Shown: positions 7,017 to 64,000, numbered from the stretch's first letter. The stretch is DNA of 64,000 nucleotides from Planctomycetota bacterium (GCA_024276605.1 JAJRWX010000005.1:49-64048), one strand, 5' to 3'. The notes: generated by a model from the letters alone, not told the origin. Translations and numbers: made by a program.

Positions 7017-7294
7017 CGTGTCGTAAATCCCCCGTACAACAATAGTTAAAAATTCTTGGCAGCAAAACGGGCACTATAGGCCTTGGCAGCCGAAAATCAA
7101 GCCAAACCAGAACCTCACAACTACAATCGGATTGACAGTATAGGGTTGTCCTGCTAAATCCCCCCATCTTATCGGCTTGACATGGCCTATAATTCCTCAT
7201 TGTTGGAGTAGGTCAACACCTGTGACGATAACTAGGACCGTCGATGATTGTCCGGTGTTGGGCCGATAAGACCCTATGAGAGGACTGACTGATC

Positions 7295-24300: not shown

Positions 24301-25550
24301 ATTGTATAGCGTGCCATCAAATCGAAGAAAATGCCCCTATCATCCAACAGTATTTCTCACAAGAAATATCAGGCATAAGAATGTTCGACGCCGTCAATGC
24401 CCCTCCGCTTCTATGGGGTGAAGGGGCTAAGATCCAACACCATTGGCTGGACAAATTCCTGCATAATGTAGTACCGTTACGTCCTTGGTTACAAGTACGC
24501 ATGCCAAGCTTTAACTTGACCAAGGCACAGTCTTCGACCTTGGTTGAATACTTCGCCGCGCTGAGTCAACACGACTCTAAACATCTGGACAAGATGACCA
24601 AGCCAGTACATGAATACATCGCAGACGAGAAAAAACGTGCAGCGCATCTTGGGGTGGCAGGTGAAGAAACTCCTTCAGATTCGGAACCGGGATTGGACTG
24701 GTATCAGCAAGAATCCCTATCTTCCATCGCTAAAAATCTACGTCATTGGTCAATTGAGCATAAAGTGATGAGGTCCAGCGAACTAGACCTATTGAGGAAG
24801 TCACCCAAGCAGCTTCGCCAAGCCCATAAGAAATTATTGGAACGTGTTGATTTTCTCACCAGCCTATACGACGTTGAATATCCGTTCGTTGAGCCTACCC
24901 AGTCGCTATCACCGGATGATCGATTCGAAACCGGAAGCAAGTTTTTCAATGACATGGGCTGCTTGAAATGTCACGTATTCGGCGACATGCTGCCAGGACC
25001 GGCCAAGACGACTGACGAATTTGTCAATGTCTACCGCTTAGATGGCGTTCGCGGCGAAGGTGAATCAGCCACGGCTATCATCAACGGCATACCCTATTCC
25101 ATTGGTAGCATCATTGATGGCCACACACTCATCAGCGCGGAAAACATCTTCTACGATACCGGCGATGTTGAAACTAAAGCGATCTTTTCAGGTCCGAATG
25201 CTGCTGGAGAGATGGAAAACATACTGCTAGTGGCAGCCAGCGCCCCCAATCTCGCCTTGACTCATCAGCGATTGCAGCGTGACTGGGTAGTCGGTTGGAT
25301 GCTTGTCCCTCAGCTCATTCAGCCTGGTACGAAGATGCCGCAAAACTTCCCGGGCGGCGAAAGCCCCTTCGCAGGCTCAGAAGAGTACCCAGGAACAGGT
25401 GAGGACCATATCAATCTACTTGTGGATTACCTCTACGATGCCGGGGTTAAAGGTGTCCGATCGCCGCTAACCAAGATTACCCTCGAGGAGGATGACGGCG
25501 AATTTGACGATGAAGAAGGATTTGACGACGAAGAAGAGTTTGACGACTAG
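21321..25550 (+). CDS. Membrane-anchored octahaem cytochrome c (1409 aa) of the bc-type operon
   Basis: It has an N-terminal TM helix and then about 190 aa of heptad-like Glu/Lys/Gln-rich sequence. Eight CxxCH motifs are present: CTTCH, CTVCH, CAKCH, CVNCH, CLACH, CYACH, CIACH, CLKCH. The C-terminal tail is EEDDGEFDDEEGFDDEEEFDD. Confidence 0.85.
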   Translation: MPIPESFLYRPEKINVWFAVSSVLMALTIGWFIAVDYIRPWHEYQDDYYVAKAAIAHLDYLDAMKQENQQKIDEAKVRRDDAQEYIDSTASEQLAMLDENLIKAELEFKKANANFSATSQVLDVTRAGYEEILAQYGEQHAITQKSHKQVRLEEDLVAGYQQDKELWEDRVAEIETQIKQLLAPLTSAEKQLRDLEAIAAEALQKDQQYRGVLDDEGLLGGLPIVSSVINAPLLDFVSPRNTPARYQVNQLVLPEIRQQLNYLVTYTTDRCTTCHLGIADPDFSKDRLAQRLERSLPGILEAMQRMGQDPPDLPSPPKTTTGTPIPAGQVTEHWQELSRQQQDDYFDTLLRMVNEYFKASGRKTIELGQPLLAHPDLDLYVSVESPHPMAKVGCTVCHEGNPQETDFVLAAHTPPTHEIEEEWADKYYDVNLGVPTATFDLVEHYWDRPMQLPRHSEAGCAKCHSQITDISRHHEKNVGTMLNRGRQLFTSVGCVNCHTEDTMPNARRVGPDLRHIASKLRRDFVEPWVMFPQKFRPSTRMPHFFLQENNREGSENQFDPHPLLRSETETAAIAQYLFALSSDFSPLEKLDDVEGDVERGRTLFKSFGCLACHGNIAEFGETWITKDLQHRLDLDEKTAGFRYKGMTYIERVKYAMEHFGSESDGVFDADRVRFEPDQDYKPPTFSRFAPELSGIGSKVTSAWLYSWLMKPAHYAPDTKMPNMRLTSADAADITAYLMTLRNESFQQDRIDMNADRLKMADDLIFTLLTAQRSERRSRAIMQDEGQELTNMLIALLEPSLGQQPAYDLISAQTLEDKKLTFLGSKMIGHYGCYACHNITGFETTTPPGTNLTTWAQKPISQLDFAFYNYAFHHMREEKEDVFGHLYPPGSETDPEDVNYWSPGINPREQITHTHSAFAKHKLRNPRLWDREKIKKPYDKLKMPNFYLTDDEAETLTTFLLSRKPALVSESLQIDYQQNSLGAIAKGRELTRELNCIACHQIEENAPIIQQYFSQEISGIRMFDAVNAPPLLWGEGAKIQHHWLDKFLHNVVPLRPWLQVRMPSFNLTKAQSSTLVEYFAALSQHDSKHLDKMTKPVHEYIADEKKRAAHLGVAGEETPSDSEPGLDWYQQESLSSIAKNLRHWSIEHKVMRSSELDLLRKSPKQLRQAHKKLLERVDFLTSLYDVEYPFVEPTQSLSPDDRFETGSKFFNDMGCLKCHVFGDMLPGPAKTTDEFVNVYRLDGVRGEGESATAIINGIPYSIGSIIDGHTLISAENIFYDTGDVETKAIFSGPNAAGEMENILLVAASAPNLALTHQRLQRDWVVGWMLVPQLIQPGTKMPQNFPGGESPFAGSEEYPGTGEDHINLLVDYLYDAGVKGVRSPLTKITLEEDDGEFDDEEGFDDEEEFDD

Positions 25551-26636: not shown

Positions 26637-27518
26637 ATGAATCGTTCGCGTATCATCGGTGTAGCTACTGTCATTGTGGTCATTGTTTGTATGATGGCTC
26701 CCACCGTTGTCTTAGGACAAACGGATGGTCCCGTTGCCTCCGGCCACATCATTGATGGTGATTATGGGTATGGCATGCCGCCCAATGCCTCTAAGGATGG
26801 CCATAACGTTGACAATCTCATCCACATTTTACATTGGTTTATGCTTGCCTTATTTGTGGCATGGGGCATCTTTTTCGTATATTGCTTGATGCGTTTTCGC
26901 GCAAGGGCGGGTCACCGAGCCACGTACGATCCCGTCAAAGCGAAGGTTTCCAAATATGCGGAAATCGGCGTCGCAGCCTTTGAAGCCTTTTTGTTAATCG
27001 GATTATCGATGCCAATATGGGCGGCCACGAAAAATGAGCCACCGGCGAAAGAACTGGCTACACACGTACGTGTCGTAGCGGAACAGTTTCAGTGGAATTT
27101 TCACTATCCTGGAACGGATGGAACTTTCGGACGGACGGCCGCGGCATTTGTAGACACGGTTGACAATCCATTGGGACTTGACCGTAGTGATCCAGCAGCC
27201 GAAGACGATGTATTCGCAACCGAATTACACCTTCCCGTGAATAAGCCGGTCATTTGTGACCTGACCTCCAAGGACGTCATTCACAGCTTCTTTCTGCCTG
27301 TGATGCGCGTCAAGCAAGACGTCATTCCCGGCATGCGTATTCCGGTTTGGTTTACGCCGGTCAAAGAGGGACGCTATGAAGTAGCCTGTGCCCAGTTATG
27401 TGGCAATAACCATTATTCTATGCGGGCGGAGATGGTGATCGAAGACGATGCCTCTTTCGCCACATGGCTTGAAGAAGTCGGCAAAGTGGAAGAGTTCGAC
27501 GAAGACGAGCTGGACTAG
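26637..27518 (+). CDS. ctaC: Cytochrome c oxidase subunit II (no fused cytochrome c domain)
   Basis: The start at MNRSRIIG is preceded by an AAGGAAGG Shine-Dalgarno. It has two TM helices and the CuA site CAQLCGNNHYSM. The acidic C-terminus is VEEFDEDELD. Confidence 0.9.
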   Translation: MNRSRIIGVATVIVVIVCMMAPTVVLGQTDGPVASGHIIDGDYGYGMPPNASKDGHNVDNLIHILHWFMLALFVAWGIFFVYCLMRFRARAGHRATYDPVKAKVSKYAEIGVAAFEAFLLIGLSMPIWAATKNEPPAKELATHVRVVAEQFQWNFHYPGTDGTFGRTAAAFVDTVDNPLGLDRSDPAAEDDVFATELHLPVNKPVICDLTSKDVIHSFFLPVMRVKQDVIPGMRIPVWFTPVKEGRYEVACAQLCGNNHYSMRAEMVIEDDASFATWLEEVGKVEEFDEDELD

Positions 27519-27528
27519 GAACTTATTG

Positions 27529-29259
27529 ATGAGCGGCGATCACCACCACGAACCAAGCTTTATACGCAAATACGTATTTTCCGTCGATCACAAAGTGATT
27601 GGCATTCAATACGGCGTTACGGCGCTTTGTTTCCTATTTCTCGGCTTTTGTTTGATTATGATGATGCGCTGGCAACTTGCCTATCCTGGCGAAACCATGC
27701 CCATCATTGGCAATCTATTTGGCGAAGCAGCTATGCCCGGTGGCGTAATGTTGCCTGAGTTCTACAACTCTTTAGGTGCCATGCACGGTACGATCATGAT
27801 CTTCTTAGGCGTTGTCCCGCTTCTGGTTGGGGCCTTTGGCAACTATGTCATGCCGTTGCAGATCGGTGCCCCGGACATGGCCTTCCCCAAGCTTAATATG
27901 TTAAGCTACTGGTCTTACTTTCTCGGCGGGGTTGTGATGCTAGCCAGTTTTTTCGTGCCCGGCGGCGCAGCCAATTCCGGTTGGACTTCATATCCACCTT
28001 TGTCGGACATTGCCACTACCGGCCAAACATGGTGGCTCTTCGGCATGGTTTGTCTTATCACCTCTTCTTTGCTTGGCTCGGTGAACTTCATTGTAACCAT
28101 CGTGCAATTACGGGTCGAAGGCTTGACTATGTTCCGTTTGCCCTTTTTCGTATGGGCTCAGTTAATTACTTCATTCCTGCTATTACTTGCGTTTCCACCG
28201 CTTGAAGCAGCCGGCGTATTACAATTGATGGACCGCCTTGCGGGTACGAGCTTCTTTCTTCCTGAAGGCCTTGTAGTCAGCGGTGTCGTCCAAACACAGA
28301 TATCCGGTGGTGGTAGCCCTATATTGTGGCAGCACTTGTTCTGGTTCCTAGCTCATCCCGAGGTCTATGTACTTATTCTACCGGCGATGGGCATGGTCGC
28401 AGAGATCATCTCTATCAATACACGCAAGCCATTGTGGGGCTATCGAGCGATGATCTATTCCACCATTTTTCTAGGTTTTATGTCCTTCATCGTCTGGGCA
28501 CATCACATGTTCATGACAGGTATGGGCACGAAAATAAGTGCCTTCTTTGCCACAACTACAATGATCATTTCAATCCCTTCAGTCGTTATTTTAACCGCCA
28601 TGGTCATTAGCCTTTACCAAGGTGCCATTCGCTTTACTGTCCCTATGTTATTCGCCCTGGCTTTTTTGCCGATGTTCGCCATTGGCGGTTTGACCGGGCT
28701 TCCGCTGGGCTTACCCGCCTCTGACATCCATTTGCATGATACATATTACGTCATAGGTCATTTTCATTACGTCGTCGCACCGGGCACCATATTTGCCATA
28801 TTCGCTGGCATCTATCACTGGTTCCCCAAAATCACCGGTCGCACGTTGAATAAAACGCTAGGATACATTCACTTCGCGTTCTCTTTCATCTTCATCAATA
28901 TCATATTCATGCCCATGTTCTGGCAAGGTATGGCCGGTGTTTCCCGGCGACTGTACGACCAAACGGTGTACGCTCATGGCGATGCCGTGCAGTCTCTAAC
29001 CGTGATTTCTTCATGGGGCGCGTGGATGCTTGGGCTTGCACAAATTCCATTTATCATCAACTTTTTCATTAGCATCAAAGCCGGCAAAAAAGTGTCCGAC
29101 AATCCGTGGGAAGCAACAACACTCGAATGGTCCGCCCCTTCGCCGCCTCCGCATGGCAACTTTGCCACCGTCCCGGTCGTCTACCGCGGGCCTTATGAAT
29201 ATAGCGTACCTGGCGCTAGTAGCGATTATATTCCTCAACACATAACTACGGAGGCTTGA
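27529..29259 (+). CDS. ctaD: Cytochrome c oxidase subunit I
   Basis: The start at MSGDHHHEPSF is at 27529. Canonical haem-copper oxidase motifs are present: WFLAHPEVYVLILP, WAHHMF and GHFHYV. Confidence 0.95.
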   Translation: MSGDHHHEPSFIRKYVFSVDHKVIGIQYGVTALCFLFLGFCLIMMMRWQLAYPGETMPIIGNLFGEAAMPGGVMLPEFYNSLGAMHGTIMIFLGVVPLLVGAFGNYVMPLQIGAPDMAFPKLNMLSYWSYFLGGVVMLASFFVPGGAANSGWTSYPPLSDIATTGQTWWLFGMVCLITSSLLGSVNFIVTIVQLRVEGLTMFRLPFFVWAQLITSFLLLLAFPPLEAAGVLQLMDRLAGTSFFLPEGLVVSGVVQTQISGGGSPILWQHLFWFLAHPEVYVLILPAMGMVAEIISINTRKPLWGYRAMIYSTIFLGFMSFIVWAHHMFMTGMGTKISAFFATTTMIISIPSVVILTAMVISLYQGAIRFTVPMLFALAFLPMFAIGGLTGLPLGLPASDIHLHDTYYVIGHFHYVVAPGTIFAIFAGIYHWFPKITGRTLNKTLGYIHFAFSFIFINIIFMPMFWQGMAGVSRRLYDQTVYAHGDAVQSLTVISSWGAWMLGLAQIPFIINFFISIKAGKKVSDNPWEATTLEWSAPSPPPHGNFATVPVVYRGPYEYSVPGASSDYIPQHITTEA

Positions 29260-49061: not shown

Positions 49062-49259
49062 ATGAGCCAATCCGGCAAAGAGTGGTTTGTTGAACAATTC
49101 CATTTACAAAGCCCCATCGAGGAATTCCAAACGCATTGCCGCTTGGAGATAGAACGACTACGGAAGGACAAGTCGGATTTCGACGAGGGCAGTTACCGTG
49201 AAGCGATCCATCTGGTCATGGAGCGCTTGCGCCCCGCGGGAATAGGCAATCAACCATGA
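49062..49259 (+). CDS. 65-aa hypothetical protein, translationally coupled to the SMC-like ATPase
   Basis: The ATG at 49062 lies 8 nt after GGGAGG. The longer ORF from 48837 runs through the repeats and is rejected. The product is MSQSGKEWFVEQFHLQSPIEEFQTHCRLEIERLRKDKSDFDEGSYREAIHLVMERLRPAGIGNQP. Its stop overlaps the next start (ATGA). Confidence 0.5.
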   Translation: MSQSGKEWFVEQFHLQSPIEEFQTHCRLEIERLRKDKSDFDEGSYREAIHLVMERLRPAGIGNQP

Positions 49260-51571
49260 TCCTAAAACACATTGAAGCGGAAAATATTCTCAAATATCAG
49301 CGACTCAAACTCACGGACCTTCCTGAGCGTGGACAGATTGCCGTCTCCGGCCTAAATGAATCGGGTAAGACCGCCATCGGAGAGACAATTTGCCTGGCCT
49401 TGTTCGGTCGGACCTATTCACTCGACTCGAATGAACTGCACAAGGTTATTCGTTGGGGTGAATACTCGGGGTATGTGCGCGTGGATTTTGCCGGCTGCGA
49501 TGGTCGCACCTATCGTATTGTGCGCAAGTTGGATAACACCGGCAAACACGAAGCCGAACTTTTTCTTGACGGCAACCGAACACCCACAGCCCAGGGCGTG
49601 GATGAAGTAGCGGATACAATTCAGAAGGTGACGGGGTTTTCGTATCAGAGTTTTGTCGATAGCTTTTATCTGGCGCAACGGGAAATCGAAGTACCCCATA
49701 GTAAAAGTGCCACTGTTAAGGCATTGATCGGTGTCGACAAGTTGGAATCCGCTGCTACTTATCTCAAGCGTGAGCAAACAGAATTCACCAACGCCGCACA
49801 AACACTTGAGGGTGATATCGACAAAACCAGGCAGGCTGTACGCGATATTAATCTGGATCGCTCCAAGTTAGGTAGGCTCGAATCACAGCGTGAAACCGCC
49901 GTATCTGCAGCCGCTGAAGCTGCACAGACCGCCTCGGATTTGACTAACGGTGCAGCTGCGATCGGTAAAGCCACTACGGCATTTGAACAGGCATCGACGG
50001 CTTTTGCACAAAGTTCCGTAGAAACCAACTATGCCCAATGGCGAAACCGTCGTCAGTCGTTGGATACATGCTTGGCGGTAGCATCCAAAGCGTCTAAAGC
50101 GACGGGCTTAGAGGTTGGCGTATCTGCACTGTCGAATACGTCTGAAACTATGCAAGCCTTTGATGTGGGGCTAGCAGAATATGATAAAGTGGCGGACCTG
50201 GCTGGTCGCTACAAGCAACGTTTATCCCACCGTTTGCAGGAAACTATAACACCAACAACCAAGGCCACGATCCAGGACATTACGACAAGGGCCACGGATG
50301 CTAGATTTGCTGATTTACGTCATGCAGCCACACTTAGACTCGAAGAACTCGCCAAACAACGGAGTATGTACATCGGCTCAGTTGTATTCGTCGCACTAGT
50401 ATCCGTGAGTACCTGGCTATGCTGGGGTGCCCTGCAATCTTGGCCCGACACAGCATTAGCCGGTTTTTTAACCGGTATCATTCCCGTAGCAGATGCGACA
50501 CGTCGGGTGATCCTGTTGATCGGCGGCATCGTCGGCACGATTACCACCGCCGGTTTAGTGGCGTTATGCGTGCGTGCTATCCAGCGCATCAAAGAATCTC
50601 AACAGCATCTTGAGCAGATCCAGACGGAAGAGCAAATTGCCCGTACCGAGTTAAACGTCATTGAAGCCATCGACGAAGCCACACTACCCAAGGCTATTGA
50701 AGCCCTTCGCGGGGTACAAAACGATCTGGTCAACAGCGCTGCTGCGTCATTTTTAGATAGTCAAGGCGCTATCCTTATTAAACCGGACAACCTGTCCGAA
50801 AAGTTGAACGAATTAAAACGTGGTAGCGGTCGAGCGGTGTCATCACTCAAGCAAGGACAAGACCGCATCGCGCAACGCGCTGCCCAGGCCAGTGCACAAG
50901 CGGAACAACACCGCCGACAAGCGGCTATCCTGGACGAACAAATCACCGAAGAAAAAGCGATGTGGGATAAAGCCGAGGCGCTGGAACGTGCGCTGGCTGA
51001 TCTGGAGGCTCAGACTAAGCAGCTTCGACGCAATGTTCAGGTTCGCAAGCTGTCTTGCGAGCTTATCGAAGGTGGATGTCGGCGCATCTATGCTCGATTT
51101 GAACCGGAGTTAAGGCGTTTCGTAGGAAAAATTCTCCCACACCTGACCCAAGAAAGATATGAACACCTGGAAATTGATGACGACCTGCACATCCGTGTAT
51201 TTTGCAACAAGAAAAACGACTTCGTCAGTTTGTCTGAAATTTCCAACGGAACGCATAGACAGTTAATGCTCAGCGTTCGCTTAGCCTTGTCGCAAGCGCT
51301 CATCGCGTCTTCAAATAATACGGCGCAGTTTATTTTCTTTGACGAGCCGTTCGCCTTTTTTGACGAGCAGCGGATGGCCAAGGCTATCGAGGTGCTACGC
51401 CGGATCAGTCCGCAGCTTACACAGGTTTGGCTCGCGGCTCAAAATTTTGAAAATGTATCCAGCTTCGACCTTCTCTTGAACTGCACCGTTGATGGCCATG
51501 TGCTCGAAGTCTCTGGAAAGCCGGCTAGACGCTCCCGCTCGTCTCAAGCAGCAGGTACCACGACCGCGTAA
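49256..51571 (+). CDS. Rad50/SbcC-like ABC ATPase with a long coiled coil interrupted by a transmembrane hairpin
   Basis: 771-aa ORF. Walker A is SGLNESGKTAIGE, the Q-loop-like segment is FYLAQRE, the signature-like segment is SEISNGTHRQL and Walker B is FIFFDEPFAFFDE. About 550 aa of Ala/Gln/Glu-rich sequence lies between the head halves. Two hydrophobic helices (MYIGSVVFVALVSVSTWLCWGAL and VILLIGGIVGTITTAGLVALCVRAI) sit at the midpoint. Confidence 0.8.
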   Translation: MILKHIEAENILKYQRLKLTDLPERGQIAVSGLNESGKTAIGETICLALFGRTYSLDSNELHKVIRWGEYSGYVRVDFAGCDGRTYRIVRKLDNTGKHEAELFLDGNRTPTAQGVDEVADTIQKVTGFSYQSFVDSFYLAQREIEVPHSKSATVKALIGVDKLESAATYLKREQTEFTNAAQTLEGDIDKTRQAVRDINLDRSKLGRLESQRETAVSAAAEAAQTASDLTNGAAAIGKATTAFEQASTAFAQSSVETNYAQWRNRRQSLDTCLAVASKASKATGLEVGVSALSNTSETMQAFDVGLAEYDKVADLAGRYKQRLSHRLQETITPTTKATIQDITTRATDARFADLRHAATLRLEELAKQRSMYIGSVVFVALVSVSTWLCWGALQSWPDTALAGFLTGIIPVADATRRVILLIGGIVGTITTAGLVALCVRAIQRIKESQQHLEQIQTEEQIARTELNVIEAIDEATLPKAIEALRGVQNDLVNSAAASFLDSQGAILIKPDNLSEKLNELKRGSGRAVSSLKQGQDRIAQRAAQASAQAEQHRRQAAILDEQITEEKAMWDKAEALERALADLEAQTKQLRRNVQVRKLSCELIEGGCRRIYARFEPELRRFVGKILPHLTQERYEHLEIDDDLHIRVFCNKKNDFVSLSEISNGTHRQLMLSVRLALSQALIASSNNTAQFIFFDEPFAFFDEQRMAKAIEVLRRISPQLTQVWLAAQNFENVSSFDLLLNCTVDGHVLEVSGKPARRSRSSQAAGTTTA

Positions 51572-53105: not shown

Positions 53106-53801
53106 ATGAAACGCTTTTTCTCAATGATCATGCTCGTTGCTTGTATGTCGCTGTTGGCCGGTGGTTCATCAGCCATGGCCGCTGGCGAAGTGTTGGATTT
53201 TGGCTTTACGAATTTGAACGGCTCATTCAATTCTTCTTCCAGTCTGTTTACAGCTTCTGATGATGCTAACACAAGTGGCAGTGTTTCACGTTTGGTACCG
53301 TTGGTGGGTGATGCTTTCTTTCAAGGAACTGCTGTGGATGCAGGCTTCCCCAATATGGCTGCCTTCGATCTGTCACTCACGTTGTCCAGTATTACTACAT
53401 CTACAGCCGCAGCAACCGGCGTGATTACCTTCACCGATACCAACGGTGATGTTCTGACGGGAAATGTCAGCGGGGACTGGAATGAGCTGTCAGGCACGAC
53501 TGTGGCCGGTATCTTTTCAGGTGTTATCACAAACTTTATTCCTGTTGATAACTCCGGTGATAATACCTTCGATGGCAACTCCGGACCTGGTTTTTCTACC
53601 ATCTTCAATTCGATGTTGCCATTTGACGGTGCCATCGTCACGCTTGAATTCGGTAATTGGTTTACTGACGGCGGTGGTGTTCCGACTGACTTTTTCAATT
53701 CTGCTACCCAAGCCACAGGCATTGTTGTGCCTGAACCAGCTACGCTGGCCATGCTAGGCCTAGGTGGATTAGCCCTGATCGTGCGACGCCGCAAGAAATA
53801 G
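53106..53801 (+). CDS. PEP-CTERM sorting-domain protein
   Basis: It has a signal peptide and a Thr/Gly/Asn-rich body. The C-terminus VPEPATLAMLGLGGLALIVRRRKK gives the PEP motif, a TM helix and a basic tail. Confidence 0.85.
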   Translation: MKRFFSMIMLVACMSLLAGGSSAMAAGEVLDFGFTNLNGSFNSSSSLFTASDDANTSGSVSRLVPLVGDAFFQGTAVDAGFPNMAAFDLSLTLSSITTSTAAATGVITFTDTNGDVLTGNVSGDWNELSGTTVAGIFSGVITNFIPVDNSGDNTFDGNSGPGFSTIFNSMLPFDGAIVTLEFGNWFTDGGGVPTDFFNSATQATGIVVPEPATLAMLGLGGLALIVRRRKK

Positions 53802-54754: not shown

Positions 54755-55702
54755 TTAATAGTTTTTCGTCAAGGTTGCTTTGACCCAGCCATCATTTGTC
54801 GAAAATGGAATGTCGAGCAGAAGCCAATCCCCTTCTTCACGAAGCACCTCAAATACCTTGTTCTTTTTTAACCGGGCGATTTCCGCACCACTACCAGGTA
54901 AGGCGAATAACTTCGCAGAACGAGTGGCGACGGTAATCCATCGCCCTAGTTGTGGATGGGCCACGTTGAGTTTCCAAGAGTAAGATAGAAATTTCACGCG
55001 GAAACCTGTTACGTCGGATTGCAAGTAGGTACTGATGTAATCAACCAACTTGGACTTGCCTCCAAAATCATCGGCGTACCAATCAAAAATTTTGGATAGA
55101 CGTAGCGTGCGCTGGTCTGTTTCGATACGGTTGCGCGAGGAGTCGTGGATAAAGTCGCTCATTTTTTTATCCAATGTAGCGTCCAAATGCTCAGCCACAT
55201 AGGCGCGATCCCATAACGGTGGACAGGAGTGGGCTGCACAAACCAACGCAGCGTGTACGCGTGGGTCTATGAAGGTAGGTCGGATGATTTTATGCTCAAG
55301 ATAGTCCAGCGTGATGGTCTTATGGCTGAGGCGAACAAGCTTCTCCTTGAATACACGATATAGCGATTCGGACGGTGAATAATCCGCTCGGAAGCGTTCA
55401 ATAATGGCACGTATCATCGACGCATTGTACAGATTGATATAAAGGGCGAGTTGCTGGTTTCGTGATAACGTCGTAGGATCAACCTTAGCGAGTGTATCCA
55501 AGTATTCGATTAATTGCGGCCAATGGTTCTTGCGTATATTGAGATAGTCCACACGTTCATCGCGCACGTTAGCCTGCAAAATAGCGTCGAATTTATTGTG
55601 ATCGATAGTTGCGGCTATCGCCCCACTTGGAACTGACAAACATAAAAACAAGATAACCTGAACCGTCCACACGAAGCGTGTCCTCTTCGTTGGGGTATTC
55701 AT
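54755..55702 (-). CDS. DUF547 domain protein with a C-terminal SH3-like domain
   Basis: A signal peptide is present. QQLALYINLYNASMIRAI and ALVCAAHSCPPL are DUF547 hallmarks. The C-terminal ~60 aa look like SH3b (VFEVLREEGDWLLLDI...GWV). Confidence 0.75.
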   Translation of the reverse strand: MNTPTKRTRFVWTVQVILFLCLSVPSGAIAATIDHNKFDAILQANVRDERVDYLNIRKNHWPQLIEYLDTLAKVDPTTLSRNQQLALYINLYNASMIRAIIERFRADYSPSESLYRVFKEKLVRLSHKTITLDYLEHKIIRPTFIDPRVHAALVCAAHSCPPLWDRAYVAEHLDATLDKKMSDFIHDSSRNRIETDQRTLRLSKIFDWYADDFGGKSKLVDYISTYLQSDVTGFRVKFLSYSWKLNVAHPQLGRWITVATRSAKLFALPGSGAEIARLKKNKVFEVLREEGDWLLLDIPFSTNDGWVKATLTKNY

Positions 55703-55883: not shown

Positions 55884-56666
55884 TTAGGCCGATGCGGCAA
55901 TACCATAGGCCTCAAGTTGTTTGGTGATGATGCCTACCCAATTACGATTGGCCTGCGGGCTGGCCGGGCTGGGATGTAGTATACGACCAATTGTTACATC
56001 CGCATCACTCAACGCCTCTTGCGCACGCTTCTCGGCAAAGGCGCCAACACCAATCACATAGCATGGCTGCAGGTGTCTGACCAATTGACGTAGCGTTGCA
56101 TCACATGCTTCGAATAGACGCTTGCGCTGGACTGCAGGAAGTTTGTCAGGTGTAAAGTTTCTCCCTGTTGATTCCATAAACACCAACGGACAATAGTTTG
56201 CCACAAAAAAACGCTTGAAAAACCGTTTGGGCGATATGAACGTATCTCTAGCCCAGCCCCACAGCCTCTTTCCGCTAACTTCACTTCGCTGACAGGCAAA
56301 ACCTAGTATTGGTCGCTTGGGATGTTGACTTTTTGGCGGAACAATATCGGTTGATATGCCCAGCCAATCACGCACGAAACCTACCTCACCAAACGGTACA
56401 CCCGTCTGGGCCATGCCCCAAGGACCGGGATTCATCCCCAGTAGCAACACCTGATTCGATGGTATGGCATATTGTTGCAGATACTGCACATGAGCTTGAC
56501 GTGCATACTCGAGCGGATTGTAAACGTGTGTGATCGGTGAAGAAAACTTGAGTAATCTCATGGAAGCAACGAGGTCATCAACCAAGTCGTTGTAAAACTT
56601 GTGTGTGTTGGATTTGATATTGACAGTGGAGGACATTATCGAATTGTACGGTACCACATACCGCAA
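55884..56666 (-). CDS. SMUG1-like (family 3) uracil-DNA glycosylase
   Basis: GMNPGPWGMAQTGVPFG matches the SMUG1 motif-1 pattern, and a C-terminal HPSPASP matches motif 2. The start may be MSSTV, about 30 nt downstream. Confidence 0.8.
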   Translation of the reverse strand: MRYVVPYNSIMSSTVNIKSNTHKFYNDLVDDLVASMRLLKFSSPITHVYNPLEYARQAHVQYLQQYAIPSNQVLLLGMNPGPWGMAQTGVPFGEVGFVRDWLGISTDIVPPKSQHPKRPILGFACQRSEVSGKRLWGWARDTFISPKRFFKRFFVANYCPLVFMESTGRNFTPDKLPAVQRKRLFEACDATLRQLVRHLQPCYVIGVGAFAEKRAQEALSDADVTIGRILHPSPASPQANRNWVGIITKQLEAYGIAASA

Positions 56667-56692: not shown

Positions 56693-57844
56693 CTACGAGA
56701 GTGTCACGATAAAATCGGCGACGCTATTGATACCTTCGTTTTTAAGGGTAGAAGTTTTGAATATGGGTCGCGTTTCTCCCAGGGCACTCATCATCTGAGC
56801 GTGGGTCGTATCCGCACCTTTCAAATCGCACTTATTCAGCACAAAACACGTCGCAATCTCCATAATACCCGCTTTGGAAAACTGCACGGCATCACCGCTA
56901 TCGGGCATCAACACAAGTAGCGTATGCTTGGCTAATTCACGAATGCCTACATCACCCTGCCCCGCCCCGACCGTCTCAACGAGAATGTAGTCGAAACCGA
57001 ACCCCACAAGTAGCTTTAACACATCTGGACATGTTGCGGCAAGACCACCAGCCACGCCGCCGGAAGCGAGGCTACGCACAAAAAAATTGCTTTCAGGGGA
57101 TGCTGACATCATACGCAATCGATCACCCAACAGTGCGCCGCCGGTGATCGGGCTACTAGGATCAATGGCTAATACGGCTACACGTTTCCCCCGAGATACC
57201 AACACCTCACCCAGCTTGCCAATGAAAGAACTTTTTCCAACACCCGGTGCGCCCGTCACGCCAATAATCACAGCATCACCAACGGGTGGTGTAATCCCGT
57301 TTAGTGAACCGCCCCGCTGCACGATGGTAATCATCTTAGCCAGGGCATCTTGTTTACGCTGTTTGTAGCCTTCAAAGATGTCATCAATTTGTACAGGCTC
57401 GTGCGCTGCGGCCAATTGTTTGACCGTATGAACAATGTCATCCACGGATGAACCGGGATTAAATACCGCAGCTACGCCCATGTCGGTCAGCGACGCGTGA
57501 TCTTCAACGGGGACGATACCACCAAGAATCATGGGAATGTGCTCAATGTCTAAGTGCTTGCGCAGTTTGAGCAACTCCGGCATCACGGTTAAGTGAGCGG
57601 CGGATAACAGACTTACGCCCACGACGTCCACATCCTCCTGAAGCGCAGCATACATCGTAGCTTCGCATGTTTGCCAAAGCCCGGTGTAGATCACCTCGAT
57701 GCCGGCATCGCGGAATGAGCGTGCCAAAACTTTGACACCGCGATCATGACCATCCAACCCTATTTTAGCTAGGAGGATGCGCGGGGGATAATTTTTCTTT
57801 TTTGATTTCGTCATAAAGGTAGGCTCAGCCGTCACGGTTACCAT
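56693..57844 (-). CDS. Fusion of a B12-binding domain (mutase small subunit) and a MeaB/ArgK-type G-protein chaperone
   Basis: The N-terminus RILLAKIGLDGHDRGVKV carries the DxHxxG B12 motif. It is followed by GVTGAPGVGKSSFI (P-loop), VETVGAGQ and LNKCD (NKxD). It overlaps the upstream mutase ORF by 7 nt. Confidence 0.9.
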   Translation of the reverse strand: MVTVTAEPTFMTKSKKKNYPPRILLAKIGLDGHDRGVKVLARSFRDAGIEVIYTGLWQTCEATMYAALQEDVDVVGVSLLSAAHLTVMPELLKLRKHLDIEHIPMILGGIVPVEDHASLTDMGVAAVFNPGSSVDDIVHTVKQLAAAHEPVQIDDIFEGYKQRKQDALAKMITIVQRGGSLNGITPPVGDAVIIGVTGAPGVGKSSFIGKLGEVLVSRGKRVAVLAIDPSSPITGGALLGDRLRMMSASPESNFFVRSLASGGVAGGLAATCPDVLKLLVGFGFDYILVETVGAGQGDVGIRELAKHTLLVLMPDSGDAVQFSKAGIMEIATCFVLNKCDLKGADTTHAQMMSALGETRPIFKTSTLKNEGINSVADFIVTLS

Positions 57845-58281
57845 TCCGGCCCTCCGCCATAGGCACCGAATACCTGTTTCATCGTGTCCATCATTTCGCC
57901 GACGGTCGCGTCGGTCTGAGCGGCTTCGATCAACGCCGGCATAACATTTTTGTCGTTTTCCGCATCTTCACGTAGGCGAGACAACGAAGCTTGGTGTTTG
58001 CCCGAATCCCGCTGGTCTTTCATGGCTTTGAGTTTGGAGATTTGCTCATCCTCGGTGTGTTGCGAAATTTTCAACATATCCATACCGTGGCCCCCTTCCT
58101 CAACGAAATCGGTGACGCCCACGATTTTCTGATCACCACCGTCGATACGTCGCTGCTCAGCCTGGGCGGATTCAGCGATCGCGCGCCGGAAGTAACCGCG
58201 ATCTATCGCAGGCAGCACCCCACCCATCGCGTCGATTTGATCAATCATGGCGTAAGCCTTCGCTTCGATCTCATTCGTCAT
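57838..58281 (-). CDS. Acyl-CoA mutase large subunit, C-terminal segment (after an in-frame TAA)
   Basis: 147-aa ORF. MTNEIEAKAYAMIDQIDAMGGVLPAIDRGYF...IVGVTDF...VGEMMDTMKQVFG is collinear with the distal TIM-barrel region of methylmalonyl/isobutyryl-CoA mutases. Confidence 0.85.
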   Translation of the reverse strand: MTNEIEAKAYAMIDQIDAMGGVLPAIDRGYFRRAIAESAQAEQRRIDGGDQKIVGVTDFVEEGGHGMDMLKISQHTEDEQISKLKAMKDQRDSGKHQASLSRLREDAENDKNVMPALIEAAQTDATVGEMMDTMKQVFGAYGGGPEW

Positions 58282-58284
58282 TTT

Positions 58285-59442
58285 TTACACAAAATAACTT
58301 CCACCTAGTGGATCAGCCACTTGAGTTACATTGGTTTCATGCGCTAAAATCTGTTGCGTACGAAGCGCAACCTTAGCCGCCTCTTCAGTAGGTAGTGCGA
58401 GCGTCTCGTCCATACTGTTGGTGTGTAATGATTGCGTTCCACCCAACACCGCCGCCATCGCCTGAAAAGCCACGCGCATGATATTGTTCGTTGGTTGTTG
58501 TTCGGTCAACGACACGCCAGCCGTCTGACAGTGCATTCTCAATTTCCAACTACGCTCATGCTTAGCATGAAAGCGATCGCGCATCACGTGTGCCCAAATG
58601 CGTCTGGCTGCACGTAATTTAGCTATTTCTTCAAAAAAGTCGTTATGCACGTCGAAGAAAAAGCTAAGTCGGGGAGCGAATGCGTCAACATCCATGCCTC
58701 GCTCGATCGACTGTTGGGTATAGGCTATGCCATCCGCAAGTGTAAAAGCTAGTTCCTCCGCAGCGCTGGCACCTGCTTCACGAATGTGATAGCCGCTGAC
58801 ACTGACGGTGTTCCACAGAGGCATTTGCTGCGTGCAATATTCGATGGTATCCACCACGAGCTTCACGCTAGGCTCGGGTGGGAACACATATTCGTTTTGT
58901 GCGTGAAATTCTTTCAAAATATCGTTCTGTAATGTACCACGCAACCGATCAAGTGCAACGCCCTGCTTCTTAGCTACGCAAACATAAAACGCCAGAACAA
59001 TCGCGGCTGGTGCGTTAATGGTCATACTGGTACTCACCTCGCCGAGATCAATACCATCAAAAAGCACCAGCATATCAGAGAGTGAAGAAACGGCGACGCC
59101 GCAACGTCCCACTTCACCTAGAGACAAGGGATCGTCACTATCGCGTCCCATGAGTGTGGGTAGGTCAAACGCGGTACTCAAACCGGTTGTCCCATGCGCA
59201 AGCAGATATTTGAATCGCTCGTTGGTATCAGCCGCAGACCCAAATCCGGCAAATTGCCGCATGGTCCACAACTTATCGCGATACATCGTGCGATGTACAC
59301 CGCGCGAAAAAGGGAACGAACCGGGAACACTTAGCATCGTCGCCGGATCAAAGCCACGCAAATCCTCAGGCCCTACGAATGGCTTACTATCTGATTCATC
59401 GATATTTTGCTTAGACTTCCCAACACCGGGTTCAATGCTCAT
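58285..59442 (-). CDS. Isobutyryl-CoA-mutase-like acyl-CoA mutase large subunit, N-terminal 385 aa
   Basis: It is collinear with MCM/ICM barrels. It reads RQFAGF (Phe where MCM has Tyr89) and [12 protein letters not shown] (Gln where MCM has Arg207), which is the ICM-type pair. It ends ..[12 protein letters not shown] in frame with the next ORF. Confidence 0.85.
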
Positions 59443-59448
59443 ATCGCA

Positions 59449-60198
59449 CTACTCCATCCACGAAGCCGGCCTTTTCTCAACGAAAGCAGCCAGCCCCTCT
59501 TTACTCTCGTCGCCCCCAAAACATTCTACAAAGGCACCAACGTCATCGCCATCCATGAAAGCCCGCTTGGCTAATGCCACCGCCCGCGGCCCTCCCCGTC
59601 GAAACGACTTACAAAACACGGACACCCGCGAGGTCAGATCTTCCGCAGAATTGACGATGTCATCGACAAGCCCCAGAGGCAACCCATCTTCAGCGGATAT
59701 GGGCATAGCACTGAAAAAGAGCTTTTTAGCACACGCAGGACCAATCAAACGCCGTAAACGTCCGATCCCTCCCCAACCCGGTGTTAAACCAAGCGACGTC
59801 TCAGGCAAACCTAGTTTTGCAGTCTTGACCGCAATACGAAAATCGCACGCCAGCGCCAATTCCAACCCACCACCCAACGCCGCCCCATTGATCGAGGCGA
59901 CCGTTAGGCAGGGCATACATTCAAGATCGTTAAACACGGCTTGTCCATGCTCTCCATATGTACGAGCCTGCCGTTCAGAAAAATCAGCCATCTCCTTAAT
60001 ATCCGCACCAGCGATAAAAACCTTACCTTCGGCTTGGATGGTCAACACCCGCACACCGGAAGTATCACGAACCTTGGTTAAAGCTTCGCTGAAACGGCTC
60101 AGCACAGTAGATGACAAGACGTTGACACCCGACGCCGTCGATAACGTGATCGCCGCCAGAGCGCCGTCAATAGATACATCAACTTTCGTATTACTCAT
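59449..60198 (-). CDS. Enoyl-CoA hydratase/isomerase (crotonase family)
   Basis: 249-aa ORF. FIAGADIKEM, GGGLELALACD and the following oxyanion-hole pattern are present. Confidence 0.9.
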   Translation of the reverse strand: MSNTKVDVSIDGALAAITLSTASGVNVLSSTVLSRFSEALTKVRDTSGVRVLTIQAEGKVFIAGADIKEMADFSERQARTYGEHGQAVFNDLECMPCLTVASINGAALGGGLELALACDFRIAVKTAKLGLPETSLGLTPGWGGIGRLRRLIGPACAKKLFFSAMPISAEDGLPLGLVDDIVNSAEDLTSRVSVFCKSFRRGGPRAVALAKRAFMDGDDVGAFVECFGGDESKEGLAAFVEKRPASWME

Positions 60199-61048
60199 AG
60201 CTATAAAATCCCCGTTTGGATTTTCTCCCTAGACGACCGGCTGCCACATACTTGCGGAGCGTCGGACAAGGTCGGTAACGGTCCTCACCGAGATCGCGGA
60301 ATATGACTTCCATGATATGTAAACACACATCCAAACCGATCAGGTCCGCCAGCGCCAACGGCCCCATGGGATGGTTCATGCCGAGTGTCATGATATCGTC
60401 AATAGCTTTCGGCTCAGCGACGCCGTCTTGAAGGGTGAAAATCGCTTCGTTTATCATAGGCATCAAGATACGATTGGAGACAAAACCCGGGTGATCGTTA
60501 CAAGAAACAGCCGTCTTGCCCACCGCCTGGGCTATCTCAATAGTTCTTTGTGCCGTCTCGTCCGAGGTTTGCAAACCACGCACCACTTCAACCAGTTTCA
60601 TTAGAGGCACTGGATTGAAAAAGTGCATACCGATAAATCGCTCGGGGTGATCGACGGTAGCGGCTAGTTGCGTGATGCTAATACTGCTCGTATTGCTGGC
60701 GAGAATACCGTCGGTTGTCAAATGCTGTTGCGCTTCTTGCAGGATAGCTATTTTAATGTCAAGTTTTTCCGTAGCCGCTTCCACAACTAACGGCTGCGTG
60801 CCTATATCGGAGAGATTCTCTACATAATGCAATCGCCCCTTCGTCGCGGTGGCATCCTCAGCCGTAACACGGCCCTTCTCAACTGCTCGGTCCAGCATTT
60901 TGTTTATCTGCGCGGATGCCGATGTTAAGGCTTCAGGATACGCATCGAACATATATGCTTCAAACCCGGACTGCGCGAATACCTGCGCGATCCCCCGGCC
61001 CATAGTCCCGGCACCGATGACAGCTATATTATTATTTGTTTTGGGCAT
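60191..61048 (-). CDS. hbd: 3-hydroxybutyryl-CoA / 3-hydroxyacyl-CoA dehydrogenase
   Basis: VIGAGTMGRGIAQV forms the Rossmann motif. SNTSSISIT and HFFNPVPLMKLVEV are also present. Confidence 0.92.
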   Translation of the reverse strand: MPKTNNNIAVIGAGTMGRGIAQVFAQSGFEAYMFDAYPEALTSASAQINKMLDRAVEKGRVTAEDATATKGRLHYVENLSDIGTQPLVVEAATEKLDIKIAILQEAQQHLTTDGILASNTSSISITQLAATVDHPERFIGMHFFNPVPLMKLVEVVRGLQTSDETAQRTIEIAQAVGKTAVSCNDHPGFVSNRILMPMINEAIFTLQDGVAEPKAIDDIMTLGMNHPMGPLALADLIGLDVCLHIMEVIFRDLGEDRYRPCPTLRKYVAAGRLGRKSKRGFYSYE

Positions 61049-61175: not shown

Positions 61176-62330
61176 CTACACCAATGATCGCGCGATGACG
61201 ATTCTATGGATTTCGCTCGTCCCTTCATACAGCTCCGTTATTTTTGCATCGCGTAAAAATCGTTCAACAGGATAGTCTTGGCAATAGCCGTAACCACCAA
61301 ACACCTGCACCGCATGGTTCGCTGCCTTCGAGCACATCTCACTGGCGAAAAGTTTAGCCATCGCACCGGCTTGCACATAATCTCGATCGTTGTCCTTATA
61401 CCATGCGGCCCGATACACTAGCGCCCGCGCGGCTTCGATGCCTACGGCTATGTCAGCGAGTTTATTTTGAATGGCCTGAAACGTACCGATTGGTCGACCG
61501 AACTGTTCGCGGGTGTTGGCATATTTGGTCGCCTCGTACAAACAAGCCTGGGCAATGCCCAACGCCTGAGCGGCGATACCAATCCGACCGCCGTCCAATA
61601 TCGATAACGCAATACGAAGACCTTGACCGCGCTCGCCAAGCAGCGCATCTTCCGAAAGCACACAATCCTCAAACACGAACTCTGCCGTTGAAGAACATCG
61701 AATGCCCAACTTCTTTTCAAATTTTCCAATACGAACACCAGGTGTATTTGTTTCGATGATGAAAGCACTCATGCCGTGCTTTTTCTCATCGGGGTCTGTG
61801 ACGGCCAGCAGTACCATGACTCCGGCTTCTTTGCCATTGGTGACAAAAATTTTAGAGCCGTTAATGTGCCAACCATCGCTTTTCAACTCTGCTCGGCACG
61901 TAGCCGCACCTACATCGCTACCGCTACCCGGCTCGGTGAGTGACAAACATCCGATCGTCTCTCCACTGGCCATGCCCGGCAAATACTTTTTCTTCTGCGC
62001 CTCAGTCCCAAAGGCCATAATGGGATAGACACATAACGACGTATGCGCACTGATTAACACGCCGGTTCCTGCACAAGCTTTGGAAATTTCTTCGACAACC
62101 ATAGTGGATGCGTCGCAACCAAGGCCCGCGCCGCCATAGGACTCTGGAATGGAAATGCCAAACAGGCCCATGTCAGCGAGTTGTTGTATCAATTGCTGGG
62201 GCATTTCAGCCGCGTGATCGCGTGCTTCCGCGCCCTGAGCCACCACCTTGATCGCAAAGTCGCCGACTTGCTCTTGCAGCATTCGTAGATCATCGTCGAA
62301 TTCAAAATCCATGAGACGGTTCCTTAGCAC
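61176..62330 (-). CDS. Acyl-CoA dehydrogenase (short-chain type)
   Basis: 384-aa [12 protein letters not shown], the FAD/substrate motifs and the C-terminal catalytic [14 protein letters not shown] are present. Confidence 0.92.
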
Positions 62331-63466
62331 TTAAGTAGATGTCGGGCGATAATGATACGTTGGATTTGACTTGAACCTTCGCCAATCTCGCATAGCTTGG
62401 CATCACGCATATATCGCTCGACGGGTACCTCTTTGGTATATCCCATGCCGCCAAATATTTGGATGGCATCCAAACATGCCTTCGTCGCCACTTCGCTGGT
62501 AAGCAATTTAGCCATGGATGCTTCGATATTGGAGGGTTTATTCGCATCAGACAGGATGGCTGCCTTTTGTGTGAGCAATCGACCGGCATCGATATTCATA
62601 GCCATGTCCGCAAGCATAAATTGAATGGACTGATGCCTGAACAACGGCTTGCCGAAGGCTGTTCTTTGCGTTGCATAAGCTAACGACTCTTCCAACGCAC
62701 CCCGACCTAAACCAAGCGAGAGGGCGGAAATCGTAATACGACCCCGTTCAAGCACCTTCATGGCATCGATAAATCCGCCGTGTAACTGTCCACACAGGTT
62801 TTCTTTTGGAATGCGTAAGTTTTCGAGTGTGAGTCCTACCGTATCGGAACCACGCATACCAAGCTTATCTTCCTTGGGACCAATGATGAGACCAGAGGTG
62901 TCGCGCTCCACAATAAACGCACTAATGCCCTTAGCCCCGCCTTCAGGTTTGGTTTTGGCTGTGATAACATACACGCCCGCATAATGGCCGTTGGTAATCC
63001 AATGTTTAGCCCCGTTAAGCACCCACGTGTCGCCATCCAACTCCGCCGTCGTTGTCAAGGCTGCGGCATCACTACCACAACCGGGTTCAGAAAGCGCCCA
63101 AGCCCCAAGACATTCACCCTTTGCTAATCGAGGTAAGTAGGTCTTTTTCTGGACATCGTTGGCACCAATAAGCAAATGTGCACAACATAGCGCGTTGTGC
63201 GCATCCAACATCAAGGCCGTTGCCCCGCAATGTCGAGCGATCTCCTCCATGATGACGGTAGCTTCCAAATCACCAAAGCCACACCCGCCATACTCAACCG
63301 GGATAAAAATGCCCAGGAAGCCAAGCTCCGCCAATTTAGCAATCGCCTCACGCTCAATATTCGCTTCACGATCCCATTGCCTGGCCCGGGGCGCGATGTA
63401 CTCCCCGGCGAAACGCCTTGCCACGTCGCGAAGGGCCGTTAAATCTTCGGAAATTTCAAAATTCAT
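62324..63466 (-). CDS. Acyl-CoA dehydrogenase (second paralogue)
   Basis: 380-aa ORF with LSEPGCGSD and [14 protein letters not shown]. It overlaps the downstream ACAD by 7 nt. Confidence 0.92.
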
Positions 63467-63601: not shown

Positions 63602-64000
63602 TCACCCGGCTTTTTTCGCCAGTTCCGCCGCGATGACCATGCGTTGAATTTCACTGGTCCCTTCATAAATCGGGGTTACACGGGCATCGCGGAAAAGCTG
63701 CTCGACGCGACACTCTTGCACAAATCCGGACCCGCCATGAACCTGCACCGCACGATAGGCTATGCGATTGGCACTTTCGCTGGCATACAATTTCGCCATC
63801 GAACAAGCACCACGATCAGAATGACCCCGGTCCACAGTCGAAGCCGCCCGCCATATCAAATTTTTTGAAGCTTCAAGTTCAACCGCACTATCAGCCACCA
63901 TGTCCGCCACAGCCTGGAACTTACCTATGGGTTGGCCAAACTGTTCACGATGACTCGCGTATGACGTCATCTCCTCCAAGCAGGCCTCAGCAATGCCACA
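63602..64000 (-). CDS. Acyl-CoA dehydrogenase (third paralogue), C-terminal part only, truncated by the window edge
   Basis: YEGTSEIQRMVIAAELAKKAG forms the C-terminus. The reading frame stays open upstream of the listed Met to the window end. Confidence 0.85.
   Translation of the reverse strand, partial: CGIAEACLEEMTSYASHREQFGQPIGKFQAVADMVADSAVELEASKNLIWRAASTVDRGHSDRGACSMAKLYASESANRIAYRAVQVHGGSGFVQECRVEQLFRDARVTPIYEGTSEIQRMVIAAELAKKAG

Follow-up and report, generated by a model that had tools for sequence, protein, structure and literature searches.

A putative two-polypeptide isobutyryl-CoA mutase with a free barrel and a cobalamin–G-protein fusion subunit encoded in a Planctomycetota genome

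The stretch of DNA analyzed here, hereafter the window, comprises 64,000 nucleotides of a Planctomycetota bacterium (GCA_024276605.1 JAJRWX010000005.1:49-64048). Its positions 56693-59442, on the minus strand, constitute the 3' end of an operon-like gene run and encode a putative cobalamin (Cbl, B12)-dependent acyl-CoA mutase together with its putative G-protein chaperone. There are three coding regions: the N-terminal 385 codons of a mutase barrel up to a premature in-frame TAA (58285..59442; PF01642, TIGR00641), the C-terminal 147 aa of the same barrel, starting at an ancestral Met codon located 4 nt past the TAA (57838..58281; PF01642), and a small subunit of 383 aa in which a B12-binding domain is fused to a MeaB-type G domain (56693..57844; PF02310 + PF03308), whose ATG overlaps the stop codon of the barrel (ATGGTAA). 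The PF01642, PF02310, and PF03308 matches are far beyond chance. Upstream on the same strand, there are genes that encode an enoyl-CoA hydratase (crotonase) of the same operon (59449..60198; PF00378, E 1.1e-44), which is syntenic in ~45 related loci, a 3-hydroxybutyryl-CoA dehydrogenase (hbd) (60191..61048; PF02737 + PF00725) that scores 401.4 bits against NF004474 (cut-off 408), and three acyl-CoA dehydrogenases (ACADs), i.e., one of the short-chain type (61176..62330; PF02771/02770/00441), a second copy (62324..63466; Pfam), and the C-terminal part of a third one that runs off the window (63602..64000; PF00441, E 2.3e-41). The closely related locus L001 also contains three ACADs. A first-pass annotation, made from the sequence alone, had placed hbd, a crotonase, and three ACADs next to the mutase, and the Pfam and NCBIfam matches agree with it. 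The operon covers every step from butyryl-CoA to acetoacetyl-CoA.

The two pieces of the barrel share one frame and are separated by TAA-AAA (GGSYFV-stop-K-MTNEIE). They match positions 8-373 (E 2.5e-171) and 376-512 (E 1.9e-33) of the 512 positions of the MM_CoA_mutase profile PF01642, and the barrel scores 584.7 bits against TIGR00641 (cut-off 303.8). The active-site residues were assigned with HMMER alignments to 1REQ/5REQ, 2XIJ, and 4R3U and collected in a column table across the references. Phe64 in RQFAGF (59251..59253, minus strand) occupies the position of Tyr89 of methylmalonyl-CoA mutase (MCM), Ile90 of HcmA, and a Phe of IcmF. Gln182 in FHAQNEY (58897..58899, minus strand) occupies that of MCM Arg207 and HcmA Gln208, and the STAFD motif (59164..59178, minus strand) carries Ala at the Asp position specific to 2-hydroxyisobutyryl-CoA mutase (HCM), as in STDFD of HcmA. 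Wherever the position is covered, the 43 orthologues have RQFAGF; the Gln occurs in all orthologues, and the F89/Q207/A116 signature (P. shermanii numbering) is invariant in the 43, while R87, Q197, Y243, H244, H328, Q330, and N366 (same numbering) are identical in the window, the orthologues, and the references. The F/Q/A signature is common to the window, its orthologues, and two NCBI-annotated IcmF proteins (Ideonella and Priestia); in the same table, MCMs have Y/R/A and HCMs I/Q/D.

In MCM, Tyr89 and Arg207 bind the substrate carboxylate, and Phe and Gln at these positions are known to mark isobutyryl-CoA mutase (ICM). The barrel has precisely this Phe and this Gln, so the assignment of the first-pass annotation was correct. 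Judged by its sequence, it has the residues expected of an ICM and not those of MCM or HCM, since it carries neither Tyr89 nor Arg207, scores 507 bits against NF006944 (cut-off 876), and shares with HCM the equivalent of Gln208 alone. In Ideonella and Priestia, the annotated icmF genes likewise have hbd and ACAD genes as neighbors. The methylmalonyl-CoA-type neighbors (epimerase, carboxyltransferase) found in Ilyobacter and Acetoanaerobium are absent at the locus, and there is no AMP-binding ligase in the operon, unlike the clusters of ELW1 and Natrinema. Because the signature, the operon, and the likeness to the icmF neighborhoods coincide, the most likely function is a butyryl-/isobutyryl-CoA isomerization feeding short-chain β-oxidation, which is in agreement with the ICM-like substrate proposed in the first pass.

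The fusion protein matches a 100%-identical NCBI protein (P0001). Its residues 22-133 (57446..57781, minus strand; PF02310, E 9.2e-23) form a B12-binding Rossmann domain that contains the DxHxxG motif as DGHDRG (residues 31-36; 57737-57754) and scores 144 bits against TIGR00640 (cut-off 57.45) and 132 bits against the small subunit of A. pernix (2yxb). Residues 134-180 (57305..57445, minus strand) comprise a linker and the N-terminal helical extension of MeaB: the TIGR00750 match begins at residue 166 and that of NF006958 at residue 148, and the AF2 model shows helices at 134-146, 153-161, and 165-176. Then follows a G3E P-loop GTPase domain (residues 181-379; 56708..57304, minus strand; PF03308, MeaB) with the complete set of MeaB GTPase motifs, namely the P-loop GAPGVGKS (residues 198-205; 57230-57253), DPSSPITGGALLGDRLRM, switch II ETVGAGQ (residues 290-296; 56957-56977), switch III GDAVQFSKAGI (56864-56896; motif GDAVQFSKAG), and NKCD (residues 337-340; 56825-56836). 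The switch III residues Q321 and K324 are invariant in 25 members of the family and align with Q341/K344 of IcmF.

The G domain, however, has no C-terminal dimerization arm. The PF03308 match spans positions 23-231 of 273, the fusion scores 210.8 bits against TIGR00750, under the cut-off of 240.75, and it ends ~42 residues past NKCD, compared with ~120 in arm-bearing MeaBs; the standalone MeaBs of Deinococcus, Ilyobacter, and Natrinema run ~70-80 residues further than the fusion. This C-terminal helical extension is the dimerization element of MeaB/MMAA (PMC9974510). Thus, the first-pass description of a DxHxxG domain fused to a complete MeaB stands as to the fusion and the motifs, but not as to the word "complete". 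The AF2 model of the fusion (mean pLDDT 81.8, pTM 0.83) can be superposed in its entirety on the Cbl+G module of IcmF crystal structures (query-normalized TM-score 0.75-0.78 over ~397 columns), while structures of MeaB and of small subunits match one half each. Among the latter matches are the chains of PDB 8DPB, each corresponding to one half of the model.

To estimate how widespread this layout is, relatives of the fusion were searched for. A first set contains at least 120 clusters (90% identity) of 360-406 aa that are 64-100% identical to the fusion, all with PF02310 + PF03308, and its named members come from metagenome-assembled genomes (MAGs) of Planctomycetes/Phycisphaerae. A second sub-clade, ~52% identical, adds at least another 120 clusters and includes a protein of the cultured Phycisphaerae bacterium RAS1. 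In a library of representatives at 50% identity, at least 18 full-length fusion clusters were found, down to 34% identity, of which at least 14 have no arm, whereas two, of 454 and 499 aa, have retained it; one member (P0255), only 35% identical, is encoded directly downstream of an F/Q/A barrel. The loci were surveyed with one genome per species, examining the best 80 of at least 562 stretches that encode a fusion relative. These 80 loci are almost all from Phycisphaerae/Planctomycetota, and in 78 of them both domains lie in one frame (residues ~20-380), the exceptions being L062, which is cut by a contig end, and L056, which begins at residue 51. Approximately 45 of the 80 keep the order ACAD–hbd–crt–barrel–fusion, with two or three ACADs.

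Several peculiarities were observed among these relatives. The armless fusions of the ~52%-identical sub-clade in L067-L081 (e.g., L067 9986-11089; L077 9740-11101), to which P0129 of RAS1 also belongs, have unrelated neighbors and no mutase barrel within 10 kb. In several Phycisphaerae genomes, an IS200/RAYT-like transposase (with the motifs MPHSYSNCL and ERYVFG) is inserted between barrel and fusion (L008 9374-9841; L009 9343-9834; L016 3227-3730; L063 9271-9792), and at this junction L011, L019, and L027 have another insertion, of three genes. Additional mutase components, such as ATR or a second MeaB, were considered as occupants of these barrel–fusion gaps and discarded, as the gaps hold transposases, toxin-antitoxin-like genes, and unrelated ORFs. 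The two divergent fusions with a full MeaB arm, P0260 (454 aa) and P0282 (499 aa), extend ~121-123 residues past NKAD, and the B12 motif of P0282 is degenerate, without a clear DxHxxG. Since both keep the arm, the B12-G fusion has probably arisen more than once. Finally, P0374 is a stand-alone 388-aa Cbl+G module with IcmF-type motifs (CDGHDSAVVTINR and SSYNGGHIEFF), which may represent either a "split IcmF" or a gene call cut short.

The three domains were further compared with those of known mutases using distance-based neighbor-joining trees with bootstrap. The barrel is 45-57% identical to split mutases and 36% identical to IcmF, and it groups with IcmF with a bootstrap of 0.02; the corresponding values are 45-47%, 28%, and 0.0 for the B12 domain, and 38-42%, 31-33%, and 0.28 for the G domain. 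The phylogeny that had been proposed as a check on the barrel and the G domain therefore shows no grouping with IcmF. The Planctomycetota barrels are monophyletic (bootstrap 1.0) and group with the F/Q barrel of a Deinococcus plasmid (0.97) and weakly with HCM (0.52), and the fused B12 and G domains are monophyletic as well (0.95 and 1.0, respectively). The homologues from Streptomyces plasmids are Y/R, i.e., of the MCM type. The Deinococcus barrel (L083, Deinococcus sp. KNUC1210 plasmid, 5247-8551), which at 57% identity is the closest one outside Planctomycetes, carries RMFAGF, AQKEF, and STAFD and adjoins a standalone full-length meaB gene. The unannotated gap between both genes is matched by the fusion query in three tblastn pieces, possibly corresponding to an unannotated B12 subunit.

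The resemblance to IcmF is nevertheless considerable. The enzyme of C. metallidurans (PDB 4XC6) shares with the window system the F/Q/A signature, a Cbl domain followed by an armless G domain with the switch III Gln/Lys pair, the fold predicted for the fusion, which superposes on the IcmF N-terminal module, and a similar hbd/ACAD neighborhood. In IcmF, however, the barrel is the C-terminal domain of a single Cbl–G–linker–barrel polypeptide, whereas in the window it is a separate polypeptide encoded upstream, and the IcmF linker is absent. NF045497 (IcmF) scores 293.5, 52.6, and 167.2 bits, far below its cut-off of 1500. Thus, the window system would work like IcmF but is not a member of it, given the separate barrel, the scores under the cut-off, and the independent phylogeny. 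The IcmA/IcmB enzyme of Streptomyces, with its standalone MeaB-like chaperone, also has separate barrel and DxHxxG subunits and reportedly Phe/Gln replacing Tyr89/Arg207 of MCM, a rule that was checked here with IcmF, MCM, and HCM sequences; its IcmB is not fused to a G-protein, unlike the small subunit of the window, which is fused to an armless one.

The split operons of Ilyobacter polytropus, Acetoanaerobium noterae, and Natrinema zhouii have the same gene order as the window, with separate genes for barrel, B12 subunit, and meaB and a gap of 6-24 nt between the last two, and they provide the closest B12 and G-domain identities. They differ in that B12 subunit and MeaB remain separate, MeaB keeps its arm, and the barrels are Y/R (MCM) or I/Q/D (HCM-like) instead of F/Q. 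In the N. zhouii plasmid locus (L085, NZ_CP084883.1, 1005-7467), the genes for a barrel carrying the signature of HCM (RQIAGF, AQK, STDFD), a B12 subunit, and MeaB are accompanied by those for an AMP-binding ligase and a TPP-binding protein, and the cluster looks like an archaeal 2-hydroxyisobutyryl-CoA mutase pathway. The two modules linked in the window fusion are also the two that were co-crystallized in the active chaperone state in the MeaB:MCM-Cbl structure, PDB 8DPB (PMC9974510). That structure is a non-covalent 2:2 complex with full-length dimeric MeaB, whereas in the window the link is covalent and the arm is absent.

Taking these data together, we consider it likely that the locus encodes a two-polypeptide adenosylcobalamin (AdoCbl)-dependent isobutyryl-CoA/n-butyryl-CoA mutase composed of a free barrel (α) and a Cbl–G fusion (β). 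The mutase would convert isobutyryl-CoA (e.g., derived from valine) into n-butyryl-CoA, which would be transformed successively into crotonyl-CoA, 3-hydroxybutyryl-CoA, and acetoacetyl-CoA by the ACADs, the crotonase, and Hbd. Concerning the chaperone, a MeaB protomer has its nucleotide site completed by switch III of the second protomer, and this same element wedges the mutase open. In IcmF, the G domains are monomeric and a GTP-dependent oligomerization between dimers is needed, and mutation of Q341/K344 impairs the GTPase activity. The fused G domain of the window would stay tethered to the Cbl domain that it serves, as in IcmF, and it keeps the trans-acting switch III residues in spite of the missing dimerization arm. 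Since it is tethered to Cbl and armless, we infer that the GTP-dependent opening of the mutase for loading or removal of AdoCbl probably requires a G-G pairing in trans of two β subunits, which could take place within or between α2β2 complexes.

Several observations weigh against this proposal or limit its reach. One is the premature stop of the barrel, since the enzyme may not be made from this copy. The substrate is called on a signature of two to three residues; among solved structures, the barrel is closest to HcmA and not to an ICM; and NCBIfam has no ICM-specific model for the split enzymes, and the barrel reaches only the generic TIGR00641. The trees were built without authenticated IcmA/IcmB, PCM, ECM, and RCM sequences, IcmF structures used in training may have biased the arrangement of the domains in the AF2 model, and ~35 of the 80 loci contain a fusion without a barrel within 10 kb. 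The first-pass annotation had spoken of the large-subunit ORF, but the in-frame TAA at 58285-58287 (minus strand) breaks it into 385 + 147 aa. In 43 of 43 orthologues the large subunit is one long ORF and the codon encodes Glu (27 GAG, 16 GAA), which corresponds in alignments to the last residue of GGSYxxE in HcmA and three MCM structures. A fresh pseudogene, with a real TAA that truncates the barrel after 385 residues and leaves no active mutase, would explain this replacement, and it is a serious possibility, even if we do not hold it to be the more probable outcome. In the gene calls of the source NCBI contig, the barrel is also given as two proteins of 385 and 147 aa, both of them singleton clusters, and the barrel of the related locus L058 (Planctomycetales MAG, 8389-9989) is likewise disrupted. 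This barrel appears as two overlapping tblastn pieces (query 1-257 and 254-534), which suggests a frameshift and, with it, a second disrupted copy in the family. But the damage in the window amounts to a single G->T substitution (GAA->TAA; GTG TAA AAA ATG versus GTC GAA AAA ATG in L002). The nearest relatives (L001 to L003, ~88% identical) carry the barrel as an intact 534-aa gene, and all eight neighboring genes align full-length with their L001/L002 counterparts. Moreover, the ratio of synonymous to non-synonymous differences from L002 is 174:34 in the first piece and 53:23 in the second, indicating strong purifying selection on both halves. Because of this selection and the intact neighbors, the stop should be either a very recent inactivation or an assembly/sequencing error, possibly in the consensus, and, since there is an ATG 4 nt past it, re-initiation and assembly of a split barrel could also occur. 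An alternative genetic code or recoding at the TAA was discarded, because TAA also terminates the barrel at its proper end and none of the orthologues has a stop at this codon.

Even if the barrel is functional, its substrate could be a different one. The three ACAD paralogues would suit several branched acyl-CoA substrates, and the enzyme might then be an isovaleryl-CoA/pivalyl-CoA mutase (PCM) or another branched acyl-CoA mutase. Efficient PCM activity reportedly needs an enlargement of the pocket at the Phe position, but this Phe is retained here, and hbd and the crotonase suit a C4 route. IcmF also interconverts pivalyl- and isovaleryl-CoA (PMC9974510), and yet a PCM appears unlikely to us. 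We give the least credit of all to an HCM that would deliver 3-hydroxybutyryl-CoA to the adjacent Hbd: HcmA (4r3u) is the best-scoring solved structure (517 bits) and the trees show the weak grouping mentioned above, but the defining Ile90 and Asp117 are Phe and Ala in all 43 orthologues, and the operon lacks the 2-hydroxyisobutyric acid-CoA ligase found in both the Mycobacterium ELW1 and the Natrinema zhouii HCM clusters. As to the origin of the fusion, the first-pass annotation had regarded the layout as a permuted intermediate. The free barrel and the fusion are real, but an evolutionary intermediate, or a fission product, of IcmF is very improbable. It is true that the N- to C-terminal order of Cbl and G is the same as in IcmF, that both G domains are armless, that the whole AF2 model superposes on the IcmF N-terminal module, and that NF045497 aligns over residues 22-365 of the fusion. 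Nevertheless, the latter match reaches 167 of the 1500 bits required, and all three domains are nearer to split mutases. Furthermore, the Cbl–G–barrel order of IcmF is unreachable by read-through from a barrel→B12-G arrangement, which is reversed relative to what this process needs, and therefore the intermediate reading is unsupported. Since the split operons already have the order barrel→B12→meaB and could act as precursors, the simplest origin would be the loss of the stop codon between the small-subunit and meaB genes, plus the loss of the arm, independently of IcmF.

Two arrangements figure in current accounts of AdoCbl-mutase maturation, the standalone dimeric MeaB/MMAA and the fully fused IcmF. 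The layout of this locus represents a third one, consisting of a free barrel and an armless Cbl–G fusion, abundant in Planctomycetota and present also in more divergent lineages. A broader proposal, which we put forward tentatively and with some doubt, is that, by convergence with IcmF, the armless Cbl–G fusion has become a third and widespread way of gating AdoCbl loading by a chaperone. As the G domain is covalently attached to the small subunit and has no arm through which to dimerize, loading and repair of the cofactor would demand a GTP-dependent G-G pairing between β subunits of different α2β2 mutases. If this were true, supramolecular assemblies like those of IcmF would be formed by a two-polypeptide enzyme, and the fusion would be a natural counterpart of the engineered MeaB:MCM-Cbl minimal complex. 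In any case, a natural system whose chaperone–Cbl module is separable from the barrel could serve to test the generality of the trans G-G pairing, as well as what the fusion buys the cell.

In the literature, a 2023 article (JBC; PMC10481361) and a 2024 review (Chem Rev; PMC11672702) deal with standalone chaperones and IcmF only. Our search found no description or characterization of a Cbl–G fusion with a free barrel, although several key papers fell outside this search and an earlier mention is possible. The first-pass annotation had contemplated that the fusion might be a common, already characterized subfamily; it is indeed common, both in protein clusters and in loci of Planctomycetota genomes, but no characterization was found. 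Apparently, the layout is a known system in a variant that is still uncharacterized; it is frequent in databases, its interest is modest, and the gain is incremental, since the chemistry, the domains, and the chaperone logic were already known. Its practical side is annotation. The fusions now go by the names "cobalamin-dependent protein", "LAO/AO transport system ATPase", or "putative GTPase ArgK" (RAS1), and the barrels "methylmalonyl-CoA mutase family protein", while the signature and the operon point to a valine/isobutyrate-to-butyryl-CoA route.

Regarding the rest of the window, tblastn searches with ATR and MeaB queries gave the fusion gene as the sole match in the window, and a scan for promoters and terminators gave no enrichment above shuffled sequences. 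Directly downstream of the fusion gene, there is a gene encoding a UDG-superfamily protein (55884-56666, minus strand), followed by one for a DUF547 protein (54755-55702, minus strand). Synteny of both genes extends to the closest relatives (L001 to L003), and that of the UDG gene to several more, with no obvious link to the mutase. On the plus strand, the window encodes a multi-haem cytochrome c of 1409 aa (21321-25550), the subunit I of a haem-copper oxidase (27448-29259), an ORF of 771 aa (49256-51571), to which a syntenic gene with SMC_N/AAA_23 domains corresponds in L001, and a PEP-CTERM-anchored protein (53106-53801), a set of genes that fits with the chromosome of an aerobic Planctomycetota.

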